The position numbers were made by a program, and so were the translations under genes. From the NCBI RefSeq assembly GCF_051903065.1, contig NZ_CP178438.1: 64,000 nucleotides of DNA; one strand, given 5' to 3'. Each line of letters begins with the position of its first letter. Positions within the stretch are counted from its first letter, which is position 1. This DNA comes from Escherichia coli. Lineage in GTDB: Bacteria > Pseudomonadota > Gammaproteobacteria > Enterobacterales > Enterobacteriaceae. Below the pieces are notes generated by a model. The model worked only from the letters and a program-made list of their open reading frames with translations. It ran no database searches and was not told the origin of the DNA. Below, one piece after another: positions 5,134 through 26,578 of the stretch.

Positions 5134-5580
5134 TTATTTGCCTTCGTGCGCGTGCTCATCTTCGCGGCAATCGCCTTCGGCACAGTGACCGTAAAGATAG
5201 AGACTGTGGTTAGTCAGGCGAATGCCATGTTTTGCGGCAATTTCACGCTGACGCGCTTCGATTGAATCATCACTAAATTCGATAACCTTGCCGCAGTCGA
5301 GGCAGATCAGGTGATCGTGGTGATGTTGCTGTGTCAGTTCAAATACGGATTTACCGCCTTCAAAATTGTGGCGGGTGACGATACCAGCGTCGTCAAACTG
5401 GTTCAGTACGCGATATACCGTAGCCAGACCAATTTCTTCACCCATATCGATCAGACGTTTGTATAAATCTTCCGCACTGACGTGATGGTTGTCCGGCTCC
5501 TGAAGAACTTCCAGGATTTTTAAACGTGGAAGCGTTACTTTCAGGCCAGCTTTCTTTAGGGCGGTATTGTTATCAGTCAT
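5134..5580 (-). CDS. fur: ferric uptake regulator
   Basis: 148-aa ORF, MTDNNTALKKAGLKVTLPRLKILEVL... with C-terminal His/Cys-rich metal-binding tail; matches Fur. Confidence 0.95.
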   Translation of the reverse strand: MTDNNTALKKAGLKVTLPRLKILEVLQEPDNHHVSAEDLYKRLIDMGEEIGLATVYRVLNQFDDAGIVTRHNFEGGKSVFELTQQHHHDHLICLDCGKVIEFSDDSIEARQREIAAKHGIRLTNHSLYLYGHCAEGDCREDEHAHEGK

Positions 5581-5659
5581 GCGGAATCTGTCCTGTTACT
5601 AAGCGGTTCACTTCATTAGAAGAAGTGACAGAATTTGCTCTTGAGATAATGCGTATCAT
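5573..5659 (-). CDS. uof: fur leader peptide (upstream-of-fur ORF), translationally coupled to fur
   Basis: 28-codon ORF (MIRIISRANSVTSSNEVNRLVTGQIPHD) ending 8 nt into fur; the uof leader is established knowledge for E. coli fur. Confidence 0.55.
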   Translation of the reverse strand: MIRIISRANSVTSSNEVNRLVTGQIPHD

Positions 5660-5868
5660 TATAGAATTGCCACGCCTAAATGAAAACCACAAGTCCCTGG
5701 CAAATATTGTTAATAAAAACGTGGCACAGCTTACATTTACAACGGCAAGGCCACTTGAACACCGGGACATTGTACAGGTACAACAGCAAAAGTTACAAAT
5801 TTGTAGCAATTATTTTGATTGGCATTATCTATTAATACGGCGTAGACATGAGTCTACGCCGCATCACA

Positions 5869-6399
5869 TCAGGCATTGAGAATTTCGTCGAGATGCAACT
5901 CTTCAGAAATCTGTTTAACCCATTTTTCTACACGTTCAGCGGTCAGTTCCGGCTGACGGTCTTCGTCGATAGCCAGACCGACAAAGTGGTCGTCATCTGC
6001 CAGACCTTTTGATGCTTCGAAATGATAGCCCGCAGTTGGCCAGTGACCAACGATGGTTGCACCGCGCGGTTCAATGATGTCGCGGATGGTGCCCAATGCG
6101 TCGCAGAAATATTCGGCGTAATCTTCCTGGTCACCACAACCAAACAGCGCAACCAGTTTGCCATTGAAATCAATCTCTTCGAGAGTCGGGAAGAAGTCAT
6201 CCCAGTCACACTGCGCTTCGCCGTAATACCAGGTTGGGATGCCCAGCAGCAGAATGTCATAAGCTTCCAGATCTTCTTTGCTGCTTTTTGCAATGTCATG
6301 GACATCGGCAACGTCTTTACCAAGCTGTTTTTGAATCATTTTTGCGATATTTTCGGTATTACCGGTGTCGCTGCCGAAAAAGATGCCAGTGATAGCCAT
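5869..6399 (-). CDS. fldA: flavodoxin 1
   Basis: 176-aa product from internal start [16 protein letters not shown] (flavodoxin FMN-binding loop); the six-frame ORF extends further upstream to 6516, but the flavodoxin start is at 6399. Confidence 0.9.
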
Positions 6400-6538
6400 G
6401 AGTGAAATAACCTCTTGAAACTTATTGAAATGGGGGTGGAAAATTGCCCACGGATAAAGGCAATCATAGCAGAACAGGCAGTCTTGCGGAATCAGCAAAC
6501 GAGCAGGACTGCACACTGTGCTACATGAAAGTGGAAAT

Positions 6539-18832: not shown

Positions 18833-21800
18833 ATGAGCGGAAAACCGGCGGCGCGTCAGGGCGACATGACGCAGTATGGCGGTAGCATTGTCCAGGGTTC
18901 AGCCGGGGTGCGCATCGGTGCCCCCACCGGCGTGGCCTGTTCGGTGTGCCCCGGCGGGGTGACGTCCGGCCATCCGGTCAATCCGCTGCTGGGTGCAAAG
19001 GTCCTTCCCGCTGAAACCGACATCGCCCTGCCCGCCCCGCTGCCGTTCATTCTCTCCCGCACCTACAGCAGTTACCGGACAAAAACGCCCGCGCCGGTGG
19101 GGAGCCTCGGCCCCGGCTGGAAAATGCCTGCGGATATCCGCTTACAGCTGCGCGATAACACACTGATACTCAGTGATAACGGCGGCAGAAGCCTGTATTT
19201 TGAGCACCTGTTTCCCGGTGAGGACGGTTACAGCCGCAGCGAGTCACTGTGGCTGGTGCGCGGCGGCGTGGCGAAACTGGATGAAGGTCACCGGCTGGCC
19301 GCACTCTGGCAGGCGCTGCCGGAAGAGCTTCGCCTGAGTCCGCATCGTTATCTGGCGACAAACAGTCCGCAGGGGCCGTGGTGGCTGCTCGGCTGGTGTG
19401 AGCGGGTGCCGGAAGCGGATGAGTTGCTGCCTGCGCCGCTGCCGCCGTACCGGGTACTGACCGGGCTGGTGGACCGCTTCGGGCGCACACAGACGTTCCA
19501 CCGCGAAGCCGCCGGTGAATTCAGCGGCGAAATCACCGGCGTGACGGATGGTGCCGGGCGTCACTTCCGGCTGGTACTGACCACGCAGGCGCAGCGGGCA
19601 GAAGAAGCCCGGCAGCAGGCCTCTTCCGGCGGGACGGAACCGTCCGCTTTTCCTGATACCCTGCCGGGTTACACCGAATATGGCCGGGACAACGGCATCC
19701 GTCTGTCTGCCGTGTGGCTGACGCACGACCCGGAATACCCGGACAACCTGCCAGCCGCGCCGCTGGTGCGCTATGGCTGGACGCCACGCGGCGAACTGGC
19801 GGCAGTGTATGACCGCAGCAATACACAGGTGCGCAGCTTTACTTACGATGATAAATACCGGGGCCGGATGGTGGCGCACCGTCACACGGGCCGACCGGAA
19901 ATCCGTTACCGTTACGACAGCGACGGGCGGGTGACAGAGCAGCTTAACCCGGCGGGCTTAAGCTACACCTACTGTTATGAGCAAAACCGCATCACCATCA
20001 CCGACAGCCTGGACCGCCGTGAAGTGCTGCACACGCAGGGCGAAGGCGGGCTGAAGCGGGTGGTGAAAAAGGAACACGCGGACGGCAGCGTCACGCAGAG
20101 TCAGTTTGATGCGGTGGGCAGGCTTAAGGCACAGACGGATGCCGCAGGCCGGACAACAGAATACAGCCCGGATGTGGTGACGGGACTCATCACGCGCATC
20201 ACCACACCGGATGGCAGGGCATCGGCATTTTACTATAACCACCACAGCCAGTTAACGTCAGCCACCGGGCCTGACGGGCTGGAATTGCGCCGGGAATATG
20301 ATGAATCCGGCCGTCTGATTCAGGAAACCGCCCCTGACGGCGATATCACCCGCTACCGTTATGATAATCCACACAGTGACTTACCCTGCGCAACGGACGA
20401 TGCCACCGGCAGCCGGAAAACCATGACGTGGAGCCGTTACGGCCAGTTGCTGAGCTTCACCGACTGTTCCGGTTATGTAACCCGTTATGACCATGACCGT
20501 TTCGGGCAGATGACGGCGGTGCACCGCGAGGAAGGGCTGAGTCAGTACCGCGCATACGACAGCCGTGGACAGTTAATTGCGGTGAAAGACATGCAGGGCC
20601 ATGAAATGCGGTATGAATACAACGCCGCCGGTGACCTGACCGCCGTCATTGCTCCGGACGGCAGCAGAAACGGGACACAGTACGATGCGTGGGGAAAGGC
20701 CATCCGTACCACGCAGGGCGGGCTGACGCGCAGTATGGAATACGATGCTGCCGGACGGGTCATCCGCCTGACCAGTGAAAACGGCAGCCATACCACCTTC
20801 CGTTACGATGTACTCGACCGGCTGATACAGGAAACCGGCTTTGACGGCCGCACACAGCGTTATCACCACGACCTGACCGGCAAACTTATCCGCAGCGAGG
20901 ATGAGGGGCTGGTCACCCACTGGCACTATGACGAAGCAGACCGCCTCACGCACCGCACCGTGAATGGCGAAACCGCAGAGCGGTGGCAGTATGACGAACG
21001 CGGCTGGCTGACAGACATCAGCCATATCAGCGAAGGGCACCGGGTGACGGTGCATTACGGGTATGATGAGAAAGGCCGGCTGACCGGTGAGCGTCAGACG
21101 GTGCATCACCCGCAGACGGAAGCACTGCTCTGGCAGCATGAGACCAGACACGCTTACAACGCGCAGGGACTGGCGAACCGCTGTATACCGGACAGCCTGC
21201 CCGCCGTGGAATGGCTGACCTACGGCAGCGGCTGGCTGTCAGGCATGAAGCTCGGCGACACACCGCTGGTGGATTTCACCCGCGACCGCCTGCACCGGGA
21301 AACGCTGCGCAGCTTCGGCCATTATGAACTCACCACCGCTTATACCCCTGCCGGGCAGTTACAGAGCCAGCACCTGAACAGCCTGCAGTATGACCGCGAT
21401 TACACCTGGAACGACAACGGCGAACTCATCCGCATCAGCAGCCCGCGCCATACCCGGAGTTACAGCTACAGCAACTCCGGCAGGCTGACCGGCGTTCACA
21501 CCACCACCTCAACTCTGGATATCCGCATCCCGTATGCCACGGACCCGGCAGGTAACCGCCTGCCCGACCCGGAGCTGCACCCGGACAGCACCCTCAGCAT
21601 GTGGCCGGATAACCGTATCGCCCGTGACGCGCACTATCTTTACCGGTATGACCGTCACGGCAGACTGACAGAGAAAACCGACCTCATCCCGGAAGGGGTT
21701 ATCCGCACGGATGATGAGCGCACCCACCGGTACCATTACGACAGTCAGCACCGGCTGGTGCACTACACGCGGACACAATATGCAGAGCCGCTGGTCGAAA

Positions 21801-23032
21801 GCCGCTATCTTTACGACCCGCTGGGCCGCAGGGTGGCAAAACGGGTATGGCGACGTGAACGGGACCTGACGGGCTGGATGTCGCTGTCACGGAAACCGCA
21901 AGTGACCTGGTACGGCTGGGATGGCGACCGCCTGACCACGATACAGAACGACAGAACCCGCATCCAGACGATTTATCAGCCGGGGAGCTTCACACCACTC
22001 ATCAGAGTTGAAACTGCCACCGGTGAACTGGCCAGAACGCAGCGCCGCAGCCTGGCGGATGCCCTTCAGCAGTCCGGCGGTGAAGACGGTGGCAGTGTGG
22101 TGTTCCCGCCGGTGCTGGTGCAGATGCTCGACCGGCTGGAAAGTGAAATCCTGGCTGACCGGGTGAGTGAGGAAAGTCGCCGCTGGCTGGCATCGTGCGG
22201 CCTGACGGTGGAGCAGATGCAAAACCAGATGGACCCGGTGTACACGCCGGCGCGAAAAATCCACCTGTACCACTGCGACCATCGCGGCCTGCCGCTGGCG
22301 CTTATCAGTGCGGAAGGGGCTACAGAATGGTGCGCAGAATACGATGAATGGGGCAACCTGCTGAATGAAGAGAACCCGCAACAGCTGCAGCAGCTCATCC
22401 GCCTGCCGGGTCAGCAGTATGATGAGGAGTCCGGCCTGTATTACAATCGCCACCGCTATTATGACCCGCTGCAGGGGAGGTATATCACTCAGGATCCGAT
22501 TGGGCTGAAGGGGGGATGGAATTTTTATCAGTATCCGTTGAATCCGGTTCAGTATATAGATTCAATGGGACTGGCATCAAAATATGGACACTTAAATAAT
22601 GGCGGATATGGAGCGAGACCCAACAAACCGCCTACGCCCGATCCAAGTAAATTGCCAGACATAGCGAAACAATTAAGACTGCCATATCCTATTGACCAGG
22701 CCAGTAGTGCGCCTAATGTTTTCAAAACATTCTTCAGAGCATTAAGCCCTTACGACTACACACTGTATTGCAGGAAGTGGGTAAAACCAAATCTGACTTG
22801 TACGCCACAGGATGATCCCCAGTATCCAGGGATGGATACAAAGACAGCAAGTGATTACCTGCCACAGACAAATTGGCCAACAACTCAATTACCACCAGGA
22901 TATACTTGTGCAGAACCCTATTTATTCCCAGACATTAATAAACCCGATGGGCCAGCAACAGCAGGGATAGATGATTTGGGTGAAATTTTAGCTAAAATGA
23001 AACAGAGAACATCGAGAGGAATAAGAAAATGA
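18833..23032 (+). CDS. rhsC: Rhs-family polymorphic toxin (rhsC-type): GC-rich YD-repeat core plus AT-rich variable C-terminal toxin domain
   Basis: 1399-aa ORF with many YD/RHS repeats (…YRYD…GR…), a core-end motif …[39 protein letters not shown], and a compositionally distinct tail; sits between ybfA and ybgA. Confidence 0.9.
22576..23032 (+). other. variable C-terminal toxin domain of the Rhs protein (about 150 aa, no recognisable catalytic motif)
   Basis: Begins just after the DPIGL…DSMGL core boundary; codon usage switches abruptly from GC-rich to AT-rich; Pro/Cys-containing sequence with no HNH/nuclease/deaminase motif that I can recognise. Confidence 0.6.
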
Positions 23033-23598
23033 AAAGAGTTTTGTTCTTTTTGCTGATGATATTTGTTAGTTTTGGTGTTATAGCTGATTGCGAAATACAA
23101 GCTAAAGATCATGATTGTTTTACTATTTTCGCTAAGGGTACTATTTTTTCCGCGTTTCCTGTCTTAAATAATAAAGCCATGTGGAAATGGTATCAGAATG
23201 AGGACATCGGTGAGTATTATTGGCAAACAGAACTGGGTACATGTAAAAATAATAAATTCACACCAAACGGGGCGAGACTCTTAATTCGCGTCGGGTCACT
23301 ACGCCTTAATGAAAATCATGCCATCAAAGGAACGTTGCAGGAGTTGATAAATACAGCAGAAAAAACGGCGTTTCTCGGCGATCGGTTTAGAAGTTATATA
23401 AGAGCGGGTATCTATCAAAAAAAGAGCAGTGATCCAGCTCAGTTGTTGGCAGTCCTTGATAATTCAATCATGGTTAAATATTTTAAAGATGAGAAGCCAA
23501 CTTATGCTCGAATGACAGCACATCTCCCGAACAAAGATGAGTCTTACGAATGTTTAACAAAAATACAGCATGAACTGCTTCGTAGTGAAGAAAAATAA
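23029..23598 (+). CDS. putative cognate Rhs immunity protein with N-terminal signal-peptide-like segment
   Basis: 189-aa AT-rich ORF whose ATG overlaps the rhs stop (ATGA at 23029-23032); N-terminus [19 protein letters not shown] looks like a Sec signal peptide; same size as K-12 ybfC as I recall it, but identity not verified. Confidence 0.6.
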
Positions 23599-23766: not shown

Positions 23767-24069
23767 ATGAGAAACTCACTAATATTACTTATTATGATAT
23801 TGTTTACAATATCACACTCAGTATTTGGAAAAGAAAATCCAGTGGAAATTTTAGTAAATAGTTGTGAAATGGCTTTGGAATTATCATATGTTTACATTAA
23901 ATATGTATACGGGAAAGAAAAAGCAGAATTTCAGAAACCATATAGTATTACAGATGACAATAATTGTTGGAAAATCGAGGGAAAACAACCGAAGACTTTA
24001 GGAGGAAATTTTACAATACTAATAGCGAAAAAAGATGGGCAAGTGTTGAATGTAATACACACGAAATAA
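23767..24069 (+). CDS. putative orphan immunity protein (small, signal-peptide-bearing)
   Basis: 100-aa AT-rich ORF, N-terminus MRNSLILLIMILFTISHSVFG is signal-peptide-like; directly follows the toxin remnant. Confidence 0.45.
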   Translation: MRNSLILLIMILFTISHSVFGKENPVEILVNSCEMALELSYVYIKYVYGKEKAEFQKPYSITDDNNCWKIEGKQPKTLGGNFTILIAKKDGQVLNVIHTK

Positions 24070-24489
24070 TCCACTGTACAGTCGATTCAAATATTTTACC
24101 AAGGTGTGTTTCGTAACAATTTTGTGTACAATATGACTCTACATATCGACGAAAAAACCACTTGATTTGACAGGAACACATTCAAAAAAATTTCTTTTTT
24201 TCATTTCAGGAGCGATTTTCATCTGTTACTTGAAGTATCTGTGAGATTAAGTGACTCCCCCTAACGTCGTACTAAATAGTAATTACTGGCCATACCGGGA
24301 GCAGTATTCGGCGCTCCCCACATGCAGCAGAATAACCGCATCAGCCAGGGAAAGATCATCAAAAGTTCACTTTTTGCACTAAATAATTCGCATTTTATGT
24401 TTAAAAATTGAGATATTCCTTATTACCTAAAGCTGTTTTTTATTGCTTATACATGATCAAATACTCCTTACATAATTAAGGAGAACAAA

Positions 24490-25625
24490 ATGGAACTTAA
24501 AAAATTGATGGAACATATTTCTATTATCCCTGATTACAGACAAGCCTGGAAAGTGGAGCATAAATTATCGGATATTCTACTGTTGACTATTTGTGCCGTT
24601 ATTTCTGGTGCAGAAGGCTGGGAAGATATAGAGGATTTTGGGGGAACACATCTCGATTTTTTGAAGCAATATGGTGATTTTGAAAATGGTATTCCTGTCC
24701 ACGATACCATTGCCAGAGTTGTATCCTGTATCAGTCCTGCAAAATTTCACGAGTGCTTTATTAACTGGATGCGTGACTGCCATTCTTCAAATGATAAAGA
24801 CGTCATTGCAATTGATGGAAAAACACTCCGGCATTCTTATGACAAGAGTCGCCGCAGGGGAGCGATTCATGTCATTAGTGCGTTCTCAACAATGCACAGT
24901 CTGGTCATCGGACAGATCAAGACAGATGAGAAATCTAATGAGATCACAGCTATCCCTGAACTTCTTAACATGCTGGATATTAAAGGAAAAATTATCACAA
25001 CTGATGCGATTGGTTGCCAGAAAGATATCGCAGAGAAGATACAAAAACAGGGCGGTGATTATTTATTCGCTGTAAAAGGAAATCAGGGGCGGCTTAATAA
25101 AGCCTTTGAGGAAAAATTTCCACTGAAAGAATTAAATAATCCAGAGCATGACAGTTACGCAATGAGTGAAAGAGTCACGGCAGAGAAGAGATCCGTCTTC
25201 ATAATGTTTGCGATGTCCCTGATGAACTTATTGATTTCACGTTTGAATGGAAAGGGCTGAAGAAATTATGCGTGGCAGTCTCCTTTCGGTCCATAATAGC
25301 AGAACAAAAGAAAGAGCCAGAAATGACGGTCAGATATTATATCAGTTCTGCTGATTTAACCGCAGAGAAGTTCGCCACAGCAATCCGAAACCACTGGCAC
25401 GTGGAGAATAAGCTGCACTGGCGTCTGGACGTGGTAATGAATGAAGACGACTGCAAAATAAGAAGAGGAAATGCAGCAGAATTATTTTCAGGGATACGGC
25501 ACATTGCTATTAATATTTTGACGAATGATAAGGTATTCAAGGCAGGGTTAAGACGTAAGATGCGAAAAGCAGCCATGGACAGAAACTATCTGGCGTCAGT
25601 CCTTGCGGGGAGCGGGCTTTCGTAA
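24490..25625 (+). pseudogene. ISAs1-family (H-repeat-associated) transposase, disrupted by a frameshift between 25260 and 25272
   Basis: Two adjacent ORFs (24490-25260, 256 aa, frame 1; 25272-25625, 117 aa, frame 3) that together total about 378 aa, the size of an H-repeat/ISAs1 transposase (N-terminus [51 protein letters not shown]); similar to K-12 ybfD/ybfL as I recall them. Confidence 0.75.
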
Positions 25626-25637
25626 TCTTGCCCTGGA

Positions 25638-25895
25638 ATGCTGACAGATAAGAATGATTGTGCCAGAATTGAAGCTATAAGCGGACTGGCAGAAAGAAAA
25701 GATAATCGTGTTATAACTGCTATAATTTATGAACTGCAAAAAAACATAATTTTTGATGAAGTTATTATTTTGGCAGGTATTTTAGGTGATATTAAACTAC
25801 ATCCTATTCAAAAAAATATATTAAATGAATTTAATGATGAGGATGTCATTGGCAATATAAAGTCAGCAATACAACAAATTATAAAATATAATTGA
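25638..25895 (+). CDS. hypothetical protein fragment with HEAT/PBS-lyase-like repeat pattern
   Basis: 85-aa AT-rich ORF immediately after the H-repeat element; repeat-like …ARIEAISGLAERKDNRVITAIIYEL… pattern; likely a remnant. Confidence 0.3.
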   Translation: MLTDKNDCARIEAISGLAERKDNRVITAIIYELQKNIIFDEVIILAGILGDIKLHPIQKNILNEFNDEDVIGNIKSAIQQIIKYN

Positions 25896-26068
25896 TGGTG
25901 AAATATGCAGCGGTACTACCAATCGGTCAAGTATTCGCTGCTTTGATGATGATGTAAAATGATTGTTTTTGAACTGGATATAACAGCTTGGTAGGGAAGA
26001 AAGCATAACCCCACAAAATTCATTTACCATCGTCTACACTTACTCCTGTAAACCGTTCAGGAGCAGTA

Positions 26069-26578
26069 ATGAATCTACAACGATTTGATGACAGCACCCT
26101 TATCCGCATTTTTGCTTTGCAGGAGTTACACCGTCTTAAAGAGCGAGGCTTAACGCGCGGGGCGCTCAACGATTATCACAGCCGCTATAAACTCGTCTTT
26201 CTGGCTCATTCCCAGCCGGAATACCGCAAACTTGGCCCGTTCGTGGCTGATATTCACCAGTGGCAAAATCTGGATGACTATTATAACCAGTACCGCCAAC
26301 GCGTAGTTGTTTTGCTTTCTCACCCCGCCAACCGACGTGACCACACCAACGTTTTGATGCACGTTCAGGGTTATTTTCGCCCGCATATTGATTCCACAGA
26401 ACGCCAGCAGCTGGCAGCGCTTATCGACAGTTATCGCCGTGGCGAGCAACCGCTTCTTGCGCCGCTGATGCGTATCAAACACTATATGGCGCTTTATCCT
26501 GACGCCTGGCTTTCAGGGCAGCGTTATTTCGAACTTTGGCCGCGTGTGATTAACTTGCGCCATTCAGGAGTTTTATGA
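26069..26578 (+). CDS. ybgA: DUF1722 protein YbgA
   Basis: 169-aa ORF directly upstream of phr with a 4-nt overlap (ATGA). Confidence 0.8.
   Translation: MNLQRFDDSTLIRIFALQELHRLKERGLTRGALNDYHSRYKLVFLAHSQPEYRKLGPFVADIHQWQNLDDYYNQYRQRVVVLLSHPANRRDHTNVLMHVQGYFRPHIDSTERQQLAALIDSYRRGEQPLLAPLMRIKHYMALYPDAWLSGQRYFELWPRVINLRHSGVL

Follow-up and report, generated by a model that had tools for sequence, protein, structure and literature searches.

In this study, a stretch of 64,000 nucleotides from Escherichia coli (contig NZ_CP178438.1, hereafter the window) was analysed at the distal edge of its rhsC locus, and it is very probable that this edge has decayed into a non-autonomous copy of the insertion sequence ISEc1 standing beside the remnant of a yibA-type gene, with flanks that were made by several events anchored at the ends of the IS. 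These are already-known kinds of genome decay, as they comprise a common IS, inactivated by a point mutation, and beside it what is left of an Rhs-linked gene of known type.

Gene order at the edge of the rhsC locus

The region under study lies between an orphan NTF2-fold immunity gene and ybgA-phrB, which is the distal edge of the E. coli rhsC locus, and the following features were recognized along it.

18833-23032: Rhs protein, 1,399 aa
23029-23598: ybfC
23767-24069: orphan NTF2-fold immunity gene
24322..24345, + strand: last 8 codons of a degenerate AT-rich Rhs-core relic (BLASTX)
24346..25635, + strand: ISEc1 (H-rpt, ISAs1 family), 1,290 bp, intact copies having 1,291 bp (alignment of copies elsewhere)
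25636..25895, + strand: 3' remnant, last 85 codons, of a yibA-family HEAT-repeat gene (homology to the IS-free loci L005 and L007 from 25636)
26069-26578: ybgA, followed by phrB, with dtpD on the opposite strand

Over 9.6 kb, one indel in a G run at 24640 is the sole difference between the window and NZ_AP045789 (strain 23CRST027), in which RefSeq labels the transposase as 'ISAs1 family transposase, frameshifted' and the 85-aa open reading frame as 'hypothetical protein'.

Identity and ends of the ISEc1 copy

An earlier reading of the window, made from the sequence only, had recognized an ISAs1/H-repeat element with a frameshifted transposase, and this is borne out by the domain matches and by alignment to ISEc1 copies. 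That reading had left the ends of the element open; they are now placed at 24346 and 25635, as the ISEc1 copies at yhhI, ydcC, PAAR-linked and other loci align exactly to this interval (5,342 of the 5,426 complete E. coli genomes). ISEc1 is abundant in these 5,426 genomes, with a median load of 5 places per genome. Copies are usually counted as one and the same IS, following ISfinder practice, when they share at least 90% nucleotide identity over the whole element, and the interval 24346-25635 lies above this level over its whole length, being 96-98% identical to copies which PGAP names 'ISAs1-like element ISEc1 family'. Membership of the ISAs1 family was likewise observed at the protein level, where the DDE_Tnp_1_assoc and DDE_Tnp_1 domains and the ISAs1 transposase model were all matched. 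The first piece of the split transposase matches PF13808 (E=2e-33), PF01609 (E=9e-18, profile positions 3-115) and the NCBIfam model transpos_ISAs1 (E=7e-81, 271.8 bits, cut-off 70), and the second piece matches PF01609 at profile positions 139-200 (E=6e-9).

The terminal inverted repeats of the element are as follows.

24346..24363, + strand: left terminal inverted repeat CAGGGAAAGATCATCAAA (inverted-repeat search; the first 80 bases are those of the K-12 yhhI copy)
25618..25635, + strand: right terminal inverted repeat TTTCGTAATCTTGCCCTG (shares bases with the stop codon of the transposase, 25623-25625; identical in the A16 and K-12 copies)

The arms 24345-24363 and 25618-25636 form an imperfect inverted repeat in which 15 of 19 positions match (79% complementary), and both ends are the same as those of copies annotated as intact. 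No second ISEc1 copy was detected elsewhere within the window, and the near-identical genome of 23CRST027 has two or more additional sites that match internal sequence of the IS. Because both ends are intact, we call this copy non-autonomous, and not necessarily immobile; in view of these ends and of the further matches in 23CRST027, it may still be mobilised in trans. The earlier judgement that the element is probably immobile is thus upheld for autonomous transposition, and is not upheld beyond it.

Target-site duplications were absent from the window copy and from those of A16, O157, HCM-25C-3 and the K-12 yhhI locus, all of which were checked; the flanks compared in the window were ...CGCATCAGC on the left and GAATGCTGAC... 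on the right. This absence is consistent with rearranged flanks, and is no argument against the identity of the IS.

The 85-aa open reading frame as a remnant of a yibA-family gene

The annotated 85-aa open reading frame (ORF85) occupies 25638-25895, and its first base lies 3 after the IS end at 25635, so that it was found outside the inverted repeats when this was tested. Its GC content is 27.1%, compared with 51.7% for the window. In alignment with E. coli YibA, whose structure has been solved (PDB 1OYZ, 280 aa), ORF85 falls on HEAT repeats and covers residues 200-272 (E=1e-16), with its start Met opposite Met200, an internal residue of that protein. Against the NCBIfam model NF007244 it covers positions 202-283 of 285 (E=3e-24) and scores 85.7 bits where the cut-off is 275, and a 145-aa homologue (P0003) scores 175.8 bits over positions 144-283. 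Judged from these alignments, ORF85 is a fragment of a YibA-family member and not a member-length protein. The sequence-only reading had described an AT-rich ORF with a HEAT-like pattern directly after the element and had suggested that it may be the 3' fragment of a gene; the first description is confirmed by base composition and homology, and the second by the match to YibA residues 200-272 together with IS-free loci that carry a longer gene.

When ORF85 alone was searched against Pfam, no hit at E<=1 was obtained. HEAT_2 was recorded above its cut-off of 27.7 in P0003 (48 bits) and in a reconstruction consisting of the N-terminus of L007 joined to ORF85 (37.2 bits), which also aligns to residues 5-272 of YibA 1OYZ with E=1.6e-39. 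The longer relatives of ORF85 disclosed by the database search, including P0002 and P0003, are 143-148 aa long, share 86-94% identity with it and match both HEAT and HEAT_2 of Pfam. As far as sequence comparison can tell, ORF85 is the last 30% of a YibA-type HEAT-repeat gene of about 280-290 codons.

In the window, as in L005 and L007, the ORF85 gene is the last of the rhsC array before ybgA, and in GmM066 the same orphan block is found at rhsA, where it is followed by full-length yibA. By analogy, the source gene was probably an Rhs immunity gene, ancestrally situated directly upstream of ybgA. According to Poole et al. 2011 (PMC3150448), who cite Vlazny & Hill, expression of YibA neutralises the growth inhibition exerted by RhsA-CT, and on this reported property of a family member the earlier proposal that ORF85 stems from 'possibly another immunity gene' appears reasonable. 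A cognate toxin gene ahead of the ORF85-type paralogue was seen in none of the loci examined. An intact full-length copy of this yibA paralogue was also not found, both IS-free versions being frameshifted. With respect to annotation, the current name 'hypothetical protein' of WP_104773200 and WP_000954499 should be replaced by one that marks a pseudogene of the yibA family, of which they are the C-terminal fragment.

IS-free loci and the missing 5' part of the gene

The sequence-only reading had proposed a comparison with rhs loci that lack the H-repeat element, and two such loci, L005 and L007, were informative. In both, a yibA-like gene without any IS stands directly upstream of ybgA-phrB and extends from about 660 bp upstream of the point corresponding to the window's junction to the same stop codon. 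Frameshifts or a stop have disrupted this gene in both contigs. Homology of L005 and L007 to the window starts at 25636, the first base past the right end of the IS, where the comparison reads ...ATCA followed by GAATGCTGACAG versus ...CCCTG followed by GAATGCTGACAG; by this comparison, the truncation point of the yibA-like gene is the exact right end of the IS. Since the ybgA-phrB of the IS-free contigs is merely 91-93% identical to that of any E. coli, these contigs probably come from non-coli species of Escherichia. Two exact-pattern scans covering one genome per GTDB species gave no match to the IS-free allele. The 5' two-thirds of the gene had no tblastn match within the window, and the 5' part was detected at the ybgA site in none of the 5,426 complete E. 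coli genomes, in which the best matches to the IS-free locus begin exactly at the junction.

Nested junctions and a mosaic element

The earlier suggestion that the gene was interrupted when the element inserted could not be sustained for the present structure, as the 5' part of the gene does not lie across the IS, no target duplication is present and what stands in the left flank is degenerate Rhs-core DNA. A simple insertion with gene halves on both sides of the IS was ruled out by the same left flank and the same absence of a duplication.

The left flanks of A16, O157 and HCM-25C-3 match residues 923-1004 of the Rhs protein of the window in BLASTX, with a frameshift and a stop. A16 retains 219 bp more of this relic, which the clade of the window has lost up to the left end of the IS (junction between 24345 and 24346), and the 80-mer spanning this left junction was found in 3 of the 5,426 genomes. 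Altogether, four left junctions were observed, each of them at the first base of the IS (CAGGG), and the flank that is kept decreases from HCM-25C-3 through O157 SS52 and A16 to the window. besides the relic, HCM-25C-3 displays a DUF6258 gene and also a GC-rich fragment of an Rhs core (...EYDEWGNL, followed by the IS); the left flank of O157:H7 SS52 stops about 165 bp earlier than that of HCM-25C-3, and that of A16 about 660 bp earlier again. GmM066 was ruled out as an uninterrupted counterpart of the HCM-type left junction, as its RHS fragment diverges before that junction is reached. On the right side, the junction of the IS with ORF85 is common to the window and A16, and in O157 the right end of the IS abuts DNA about 300 bp further on, with the consequence that ORF85 is deleted. 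In total, the junctions anchored at an IS end number four nested ones on the left and at least two on the right.

The element itself has changed along with its left junction. Between the window and A16, the leftmost 778 bp of the IS differ by 20 SNPs, 276 bp of left flank show no difference and the 947 bp to the right show a single one, a contrast between blocks for which Fisher's test gives p=7e-8, and 12 of the 20 SNPs in the left part are private with respect to four comparison copies. This block signifies that the left 60% of the IS, with its junction, has a history other than that of the right 40% and ORF85. On this pattern of substitutions the ISEc1 copy of the window is a recombinant mosaic, and we infer that its left 60%, together with the new left junction, arrived by recombination with a divergent ISEc1 copy. 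No donor for the left part at 99% identity or above was detected outside the clade among the 5,426 E. coli genomes and 72,556 plasmids.

Any insertion must have been followed by further events fixed to the ends of the element, by deletion or by recombination of one IS copy with another, and the flank would have been removed repeatedly on both sides, each time to the terminal base of the IS. The most economical route to the present structure would be that another ISEc1 copy, of divergent sequence, inserted at a point 219 bp upstream of the first, and that homologous recombination between the two direct copies then removed the 219 bp and left a mosaic. Import of a segment from an unsampled strain would give the same pattern as recombination between two copies.

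Instead of recombination with a second copy, the nested junctions might be adjacent deletions made by the transposase, that is, by intramolecular transposition of the resident copy. On both sides, the terminal base of the IS is the exact limit of every junction, as is classically seen with such IS-mediated adjacent deletions. We nevertheless regard this as an unlikely origin of the junctions, as in the clade of the window the IS itself was altered, with the substitutions confined to its left part and the flanks and right part essentially identical to A16, and a deletion in place would not yield a mosaic IS. Furthermore, the tandem H-rpt copies present at this site in K-12-type strains are a substrate for recombination between copies, the route that we prefer. 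At the junctions of O157 and A16, either route may have operated.

The frameshift in the transposase gene

The transposase is read in two open reading frames lying in different frames, one of 256 aa at 24490-25260 and one of 117 aa at 25272-25625, and in this respect the sequence-only reading was right. It had placed the frameshift between 25260 and 25272, and this position was mistaken, as the frameshift lies about 90 bp upstream, at 25169-25171; the interval it named only marks the stop of the out-of-frame reading. Strain A16 has an intact gene of 1,137 bp at this locus, and alignment to it disclosed a single missing A at this point, GAGTGAAAAGAG in A16 having become GAGTGAAAGAG in the window. 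The gene is accordingly composed of the following parts.

24490..25170, + strand: authentic 5' part of the transposase, codons 1-227 (PF13808 and PF01609 positions 3-115)
25169..25171, + strand: frameshift site, an A3 run where intact copies have A4 (alignments)
25171..25260, + strand: out-of-frame tail of the 256-aa ORF, 29 codons and a stop, not transposase (translation compared with an intact copy)
25173..25625, + strand: authentic 3' part of the transposase, 150 codons and a stop, carrying the C-terminal third of the DDE domain (PF01609 positions 139-200)

The out-of-frame reading halts at the stop codon 25258-25260, and the true 3' frame runs from 25173 and not from the GTG at 25272, so that the 378-codon gene truly splits into 227 and 151 codons. 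The N-terminal two-thirds and the C-terminal third of the DDE domain are separated by the deletion, and the whole catalytic domain is present on no single product, because positions 3-115 and 139-200 of DDE_Tnp_1 sit on separate pieces. An intact transposase frame is therefore lacking in this copy, owing to the 1-bp deletion, in agreement with the 'frameshifted' label of RefSeq. As a separate observation, the interval in which the crossover of the mosaic falls, 25124-25190 (68-bp), contains the frameshift site; the chance of this is about 6%, and no conclusion is drawn from it.

The 61-mer bearing the A3 run was found at 100% identity in 3 of the 5,426 complete E. coli genomes, namely 23CRST027 and 23CRST031 from Ecuador and ECNB21-M121 from China, the last being likewise annotated as 'frameshifted', and about 3,780 other genomes hold the segment at no more than 98.4% identity and with A4. 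The same three genomes also share the private left junction and the private SNP block. Since the allele is confined to three of 5,426 genomes, and these come from two countries, the A3 deletion is probably a real inherited mutation, private to one clade.

It is improbable that the missing base is a homopolymer error of sequencing or assembly and that the transposase is really intact. A change of one base in the length of an A run is indeed of the type that long-read assemblies miscall, and homopolymer disagreement does exist within the clade, as the window and 23CRST027 differ by a G5/G4 indel at 24640, in the same gene and 530 bp upstream. Yet the same A3 run is carried by the window and by three RefSeq assemblies from two countries and two submitters, and by no other genome with the 61-mer region; it occurs together with the 219-bp deletion and the private SNP block, as an inherited mutation would; and a run of four is short for systematic miscalling. 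With the inherited deletion preferred, the frameshift is now exactly placed and provides a marker private to one clade.

Residual coding capacity

It is very improbable that ORF85 works as a small gene in its own right, for instance as a minimal immunity protein or decoy built of HEAT repeats, perhaps translated by re-initiation 12 nt past the stop of the transposase. The frame does start with ATG, is uninterrupted in about 350 genomes and is called as a CDS by PGAP; it lies in frame with the C-terminus of the transposase, 4 codons past its stop; and a dN/dS of about 0.36 was obtained between the window and L007, from 8 synonymous and 12 non-synonymous changes. This ratio, however, largely mirrors evolution that preceded the truncation, and the Met with which ORF85 begins is an internal residue that is present in YibA too. 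ORF85 spans residues 200-283 of YibA only, that is, about 2.5 repeats of an alpha-solenoid protein, and no Shine-Dalgarno sequence is visible upstream of it. The promoter scan recorded 5 sites, which is no better than the 2.7 +/- 1.9 in shuffled sequence, and the scan for promoters and terminators around ORF85 was on the whole uninformative. E. coli variants occur that have an internal deletion, are frameshifted or are truncated (P0004-P0006), O157 and K-12-type strains have lost ORF85 wholly, and the IS-free relative L005 has a stop codon and a 10-bp deletion in the same region. We conclude that ORF85 is most likely non-functional.

Scarcely any credence can be given to a programmed-frameshift transposase, as in IS1 or IS3, with an element active as it stands: its two ORFs overlap like those of frameshift-regulated transposases, but copies here and at other loci have one 378-aa ORF that PGAP annotates as intact, the split gene is found in just 3 of 5,426 genomes, and restoring the frame would need an extra base at GTGAAAGAG, where there is no slippery motif. 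To our knowledge, the transposases of the ISAs1 family are single-ORF.

Comparison with known Rhs-linked elements

One genome paper states that transposition of H-rpt has never been observed (PMC3032704). The series of junctions anchored at the IS ends, taken with the many insertion loci, constitutes comparative evidence of past H-rpt mobility, and the rhsC junction series could serve to show that a transposase in E. coli recognises, or once recognised, the ends of H-rpt. It is possible, though doubtful, that ISEc1/H-rpt acted repeatedly at the rhsC edge, trimming it stepwise to its own terminal base, seeding tandem copies that recombined and driving the turnover of Rhs immunity genes, with the frameshift born in the 68-bp crossover interval. 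If true, H-rpt would be a driver of turnover in the Rhs immunity repertoire and not a passive passenger. Apart from this, the case has little importance beyond annotation, and the understanding of Rhs systems and of ISAs1 elements is unchanged.

The closest known counterpart is H-rptB (yhhI, ISEc1) at the rhsB locus of K-12, which is the same 1,291-bp element, 97.5% identical and with identical ends. It shares with the window copy a place at an Rhs element's distal end and a truncated neighbour, here a HEAT-repeat pseudogene of the yibA type to which PGAP gives the label 'lyase' or 'HEAT repeat domain-containing protein'. The transposase of H-rptB is intact, whereas that of the window copy is frameshifted. 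In K-12 rhsB, the left end of the IS cuts the gene and the N-terminal 116 codons are kept; in the window, by contrast, the cut is made by the right end, in a paralogue with about 66% nucleotide identity to yibA, and the C-terminal 85 codons are kept. The yibA' fragment of K-12 rhsB and ORF85 overlap by one homologous HEAT repeat (LNDKSACVRATAIESTA versus LTDKNDCARIEAISGLA). That they are two halves of one gene, parted by recombination between IS copies, was considered and ruled out, as they are divergent paralogues.

At rhsC itself, the H-rpt copies of K-12-type strains (ybfQ/ybfL/ybfD) belong to the same IS family and occupy the same site before ybgA, and defective copies are the norm there. 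These strains carry at least two copies, of which the last is truncated at its right end, and no ORF85, whereas the window carries one copy of complete length with a point frameshift and has kept ORF85. The H-rpt element of Rhs loci, which now goes by the name ISEc1, was reportedly described by Hill and colleagues, along with tandem defective H-rptC copies at rhsC (Zhao et al. 1993, J Bacteriol 175:2799).

The gene of YibA (b3594; PDB 1OYZ), which is encoded directly downstream of rhsA, resembles ORF85 in being an AT-rich gene within an Rhs locus; it differs in that ORF85 represents the last 30% only of a divergent paralogue and stands by ybgA, while the YibA gene sits by rhsA. Finally, the array of the window is alike to the orphan toxin/immunity arrays of CDI/Rhs systems, with their IS-interrupted members (Poole et al. 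2011, PMC3150448), and set beside those arrays it displays nothing unusual, its terminal member being reduced to a fragment.

Structure and junctions of the ISEc1 copy

The ISEc1 copy at this rhsC locus is, judging from the distribution of SNPs in 24346-25123 and in 25124-26070, a mosaic. Compared with the allele of strain A16, which carries an intact copy at the same locus, 20 SNPs were observed in the left 778 bp of the element, against only 1 SNP in the 947 bp rightward, while the left flank of the element showed 0 SNPs. The frameshift of the transposase gene falls inside the 68-bp crossover interval of this mosaic. We searched E. coli genomes and plasmids for a donor variant of the divergent left part, and none was found.

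With reference to the left junction (24345|24346), it was observed that the tip of the element is the exact endpoint of a 219-bp deletion in Rhs-core relic DNA. This junction was detected in only three of the 5,426 E. coli genomes, and the same three (23CRST027, 23CRST031 and ECNB21-M121) bear the transposase frameshift. At position 24640, inside the transposase gene, the window has a run of five G and the otherwise identical 23CRST027 has four, so the latter assembly would hold two transposase frameshifts; the difference may be a homopolymer error in one of the two assemblies.

Variation on the right side was seen in O157:H7 SS52 (L013) and in the following region:
L012 (HCM-25C-3), 5390-6430: right-side region

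In O157:H7 SS52 (L013, 5222-5371), the right end of the element adjoins DNA about 300 bp past the junction of the window, so that the 85-aa ORF, a remnant of a yibA-family HEAT-repeat gene, is deleted there. K-12-type strains have, in place of this ORF, ybfD, a second H-rpt copy truncated on its right. The right-side junctions of the element therefore vary as well.

Decay of the distal array is independent of the element. Already in the IS-free contigs L005 and L007, which probably come from Escherichia species other than E. coli, the yibA-like gene is reduced to a pseudogene, with a stop and a 10-bp deletion in L005 (3350-4659) and a split over three frames in L007 (429-1900). The gene upstream of it is also frameshifted in L007, and its L005 counterpart gives a weak DUF3887 match.

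Rhs modules and orphan immunity genes

Two features precede the element:
18833-23598: full-length Rhs gene and ybfC, ybfC directly after rhs with a 4-bp overlap
23767-24069: orphan NTF2-fold immunity gene (PF15631, E=2e-20)

No toxin gene lies ahead of the NTF2-fold gene, and its annotated length differs among strains (303, 228, 201 and 180 bp), pointing to poorly defined start sites or to decay. YbfC has a signal-peptide-like N-terminus and no Pfam family match. In K-12, ybfC comes after an orphan rhs fragment (ybfO), whereas here it stands behind a full-length rhs, and it thus appears that the ybfC toxin/immunity module has been loaded onto the main rhs gene in the window strain.

The NTF2 gene, the AT-rich Rhs relic and the DUF6258 gene, which stand together left of the element at rhsC, recur as the same block at the rhsA locus of strain GmM066 (L015, 3718-6881). 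After the block there come pentapeptide-repeat fragments, then a further NTF2 immunity pseudogene and finally yibA at full length; the orphan array with a terminal yibA-type gene seems to be common to more than one Rhs locus.
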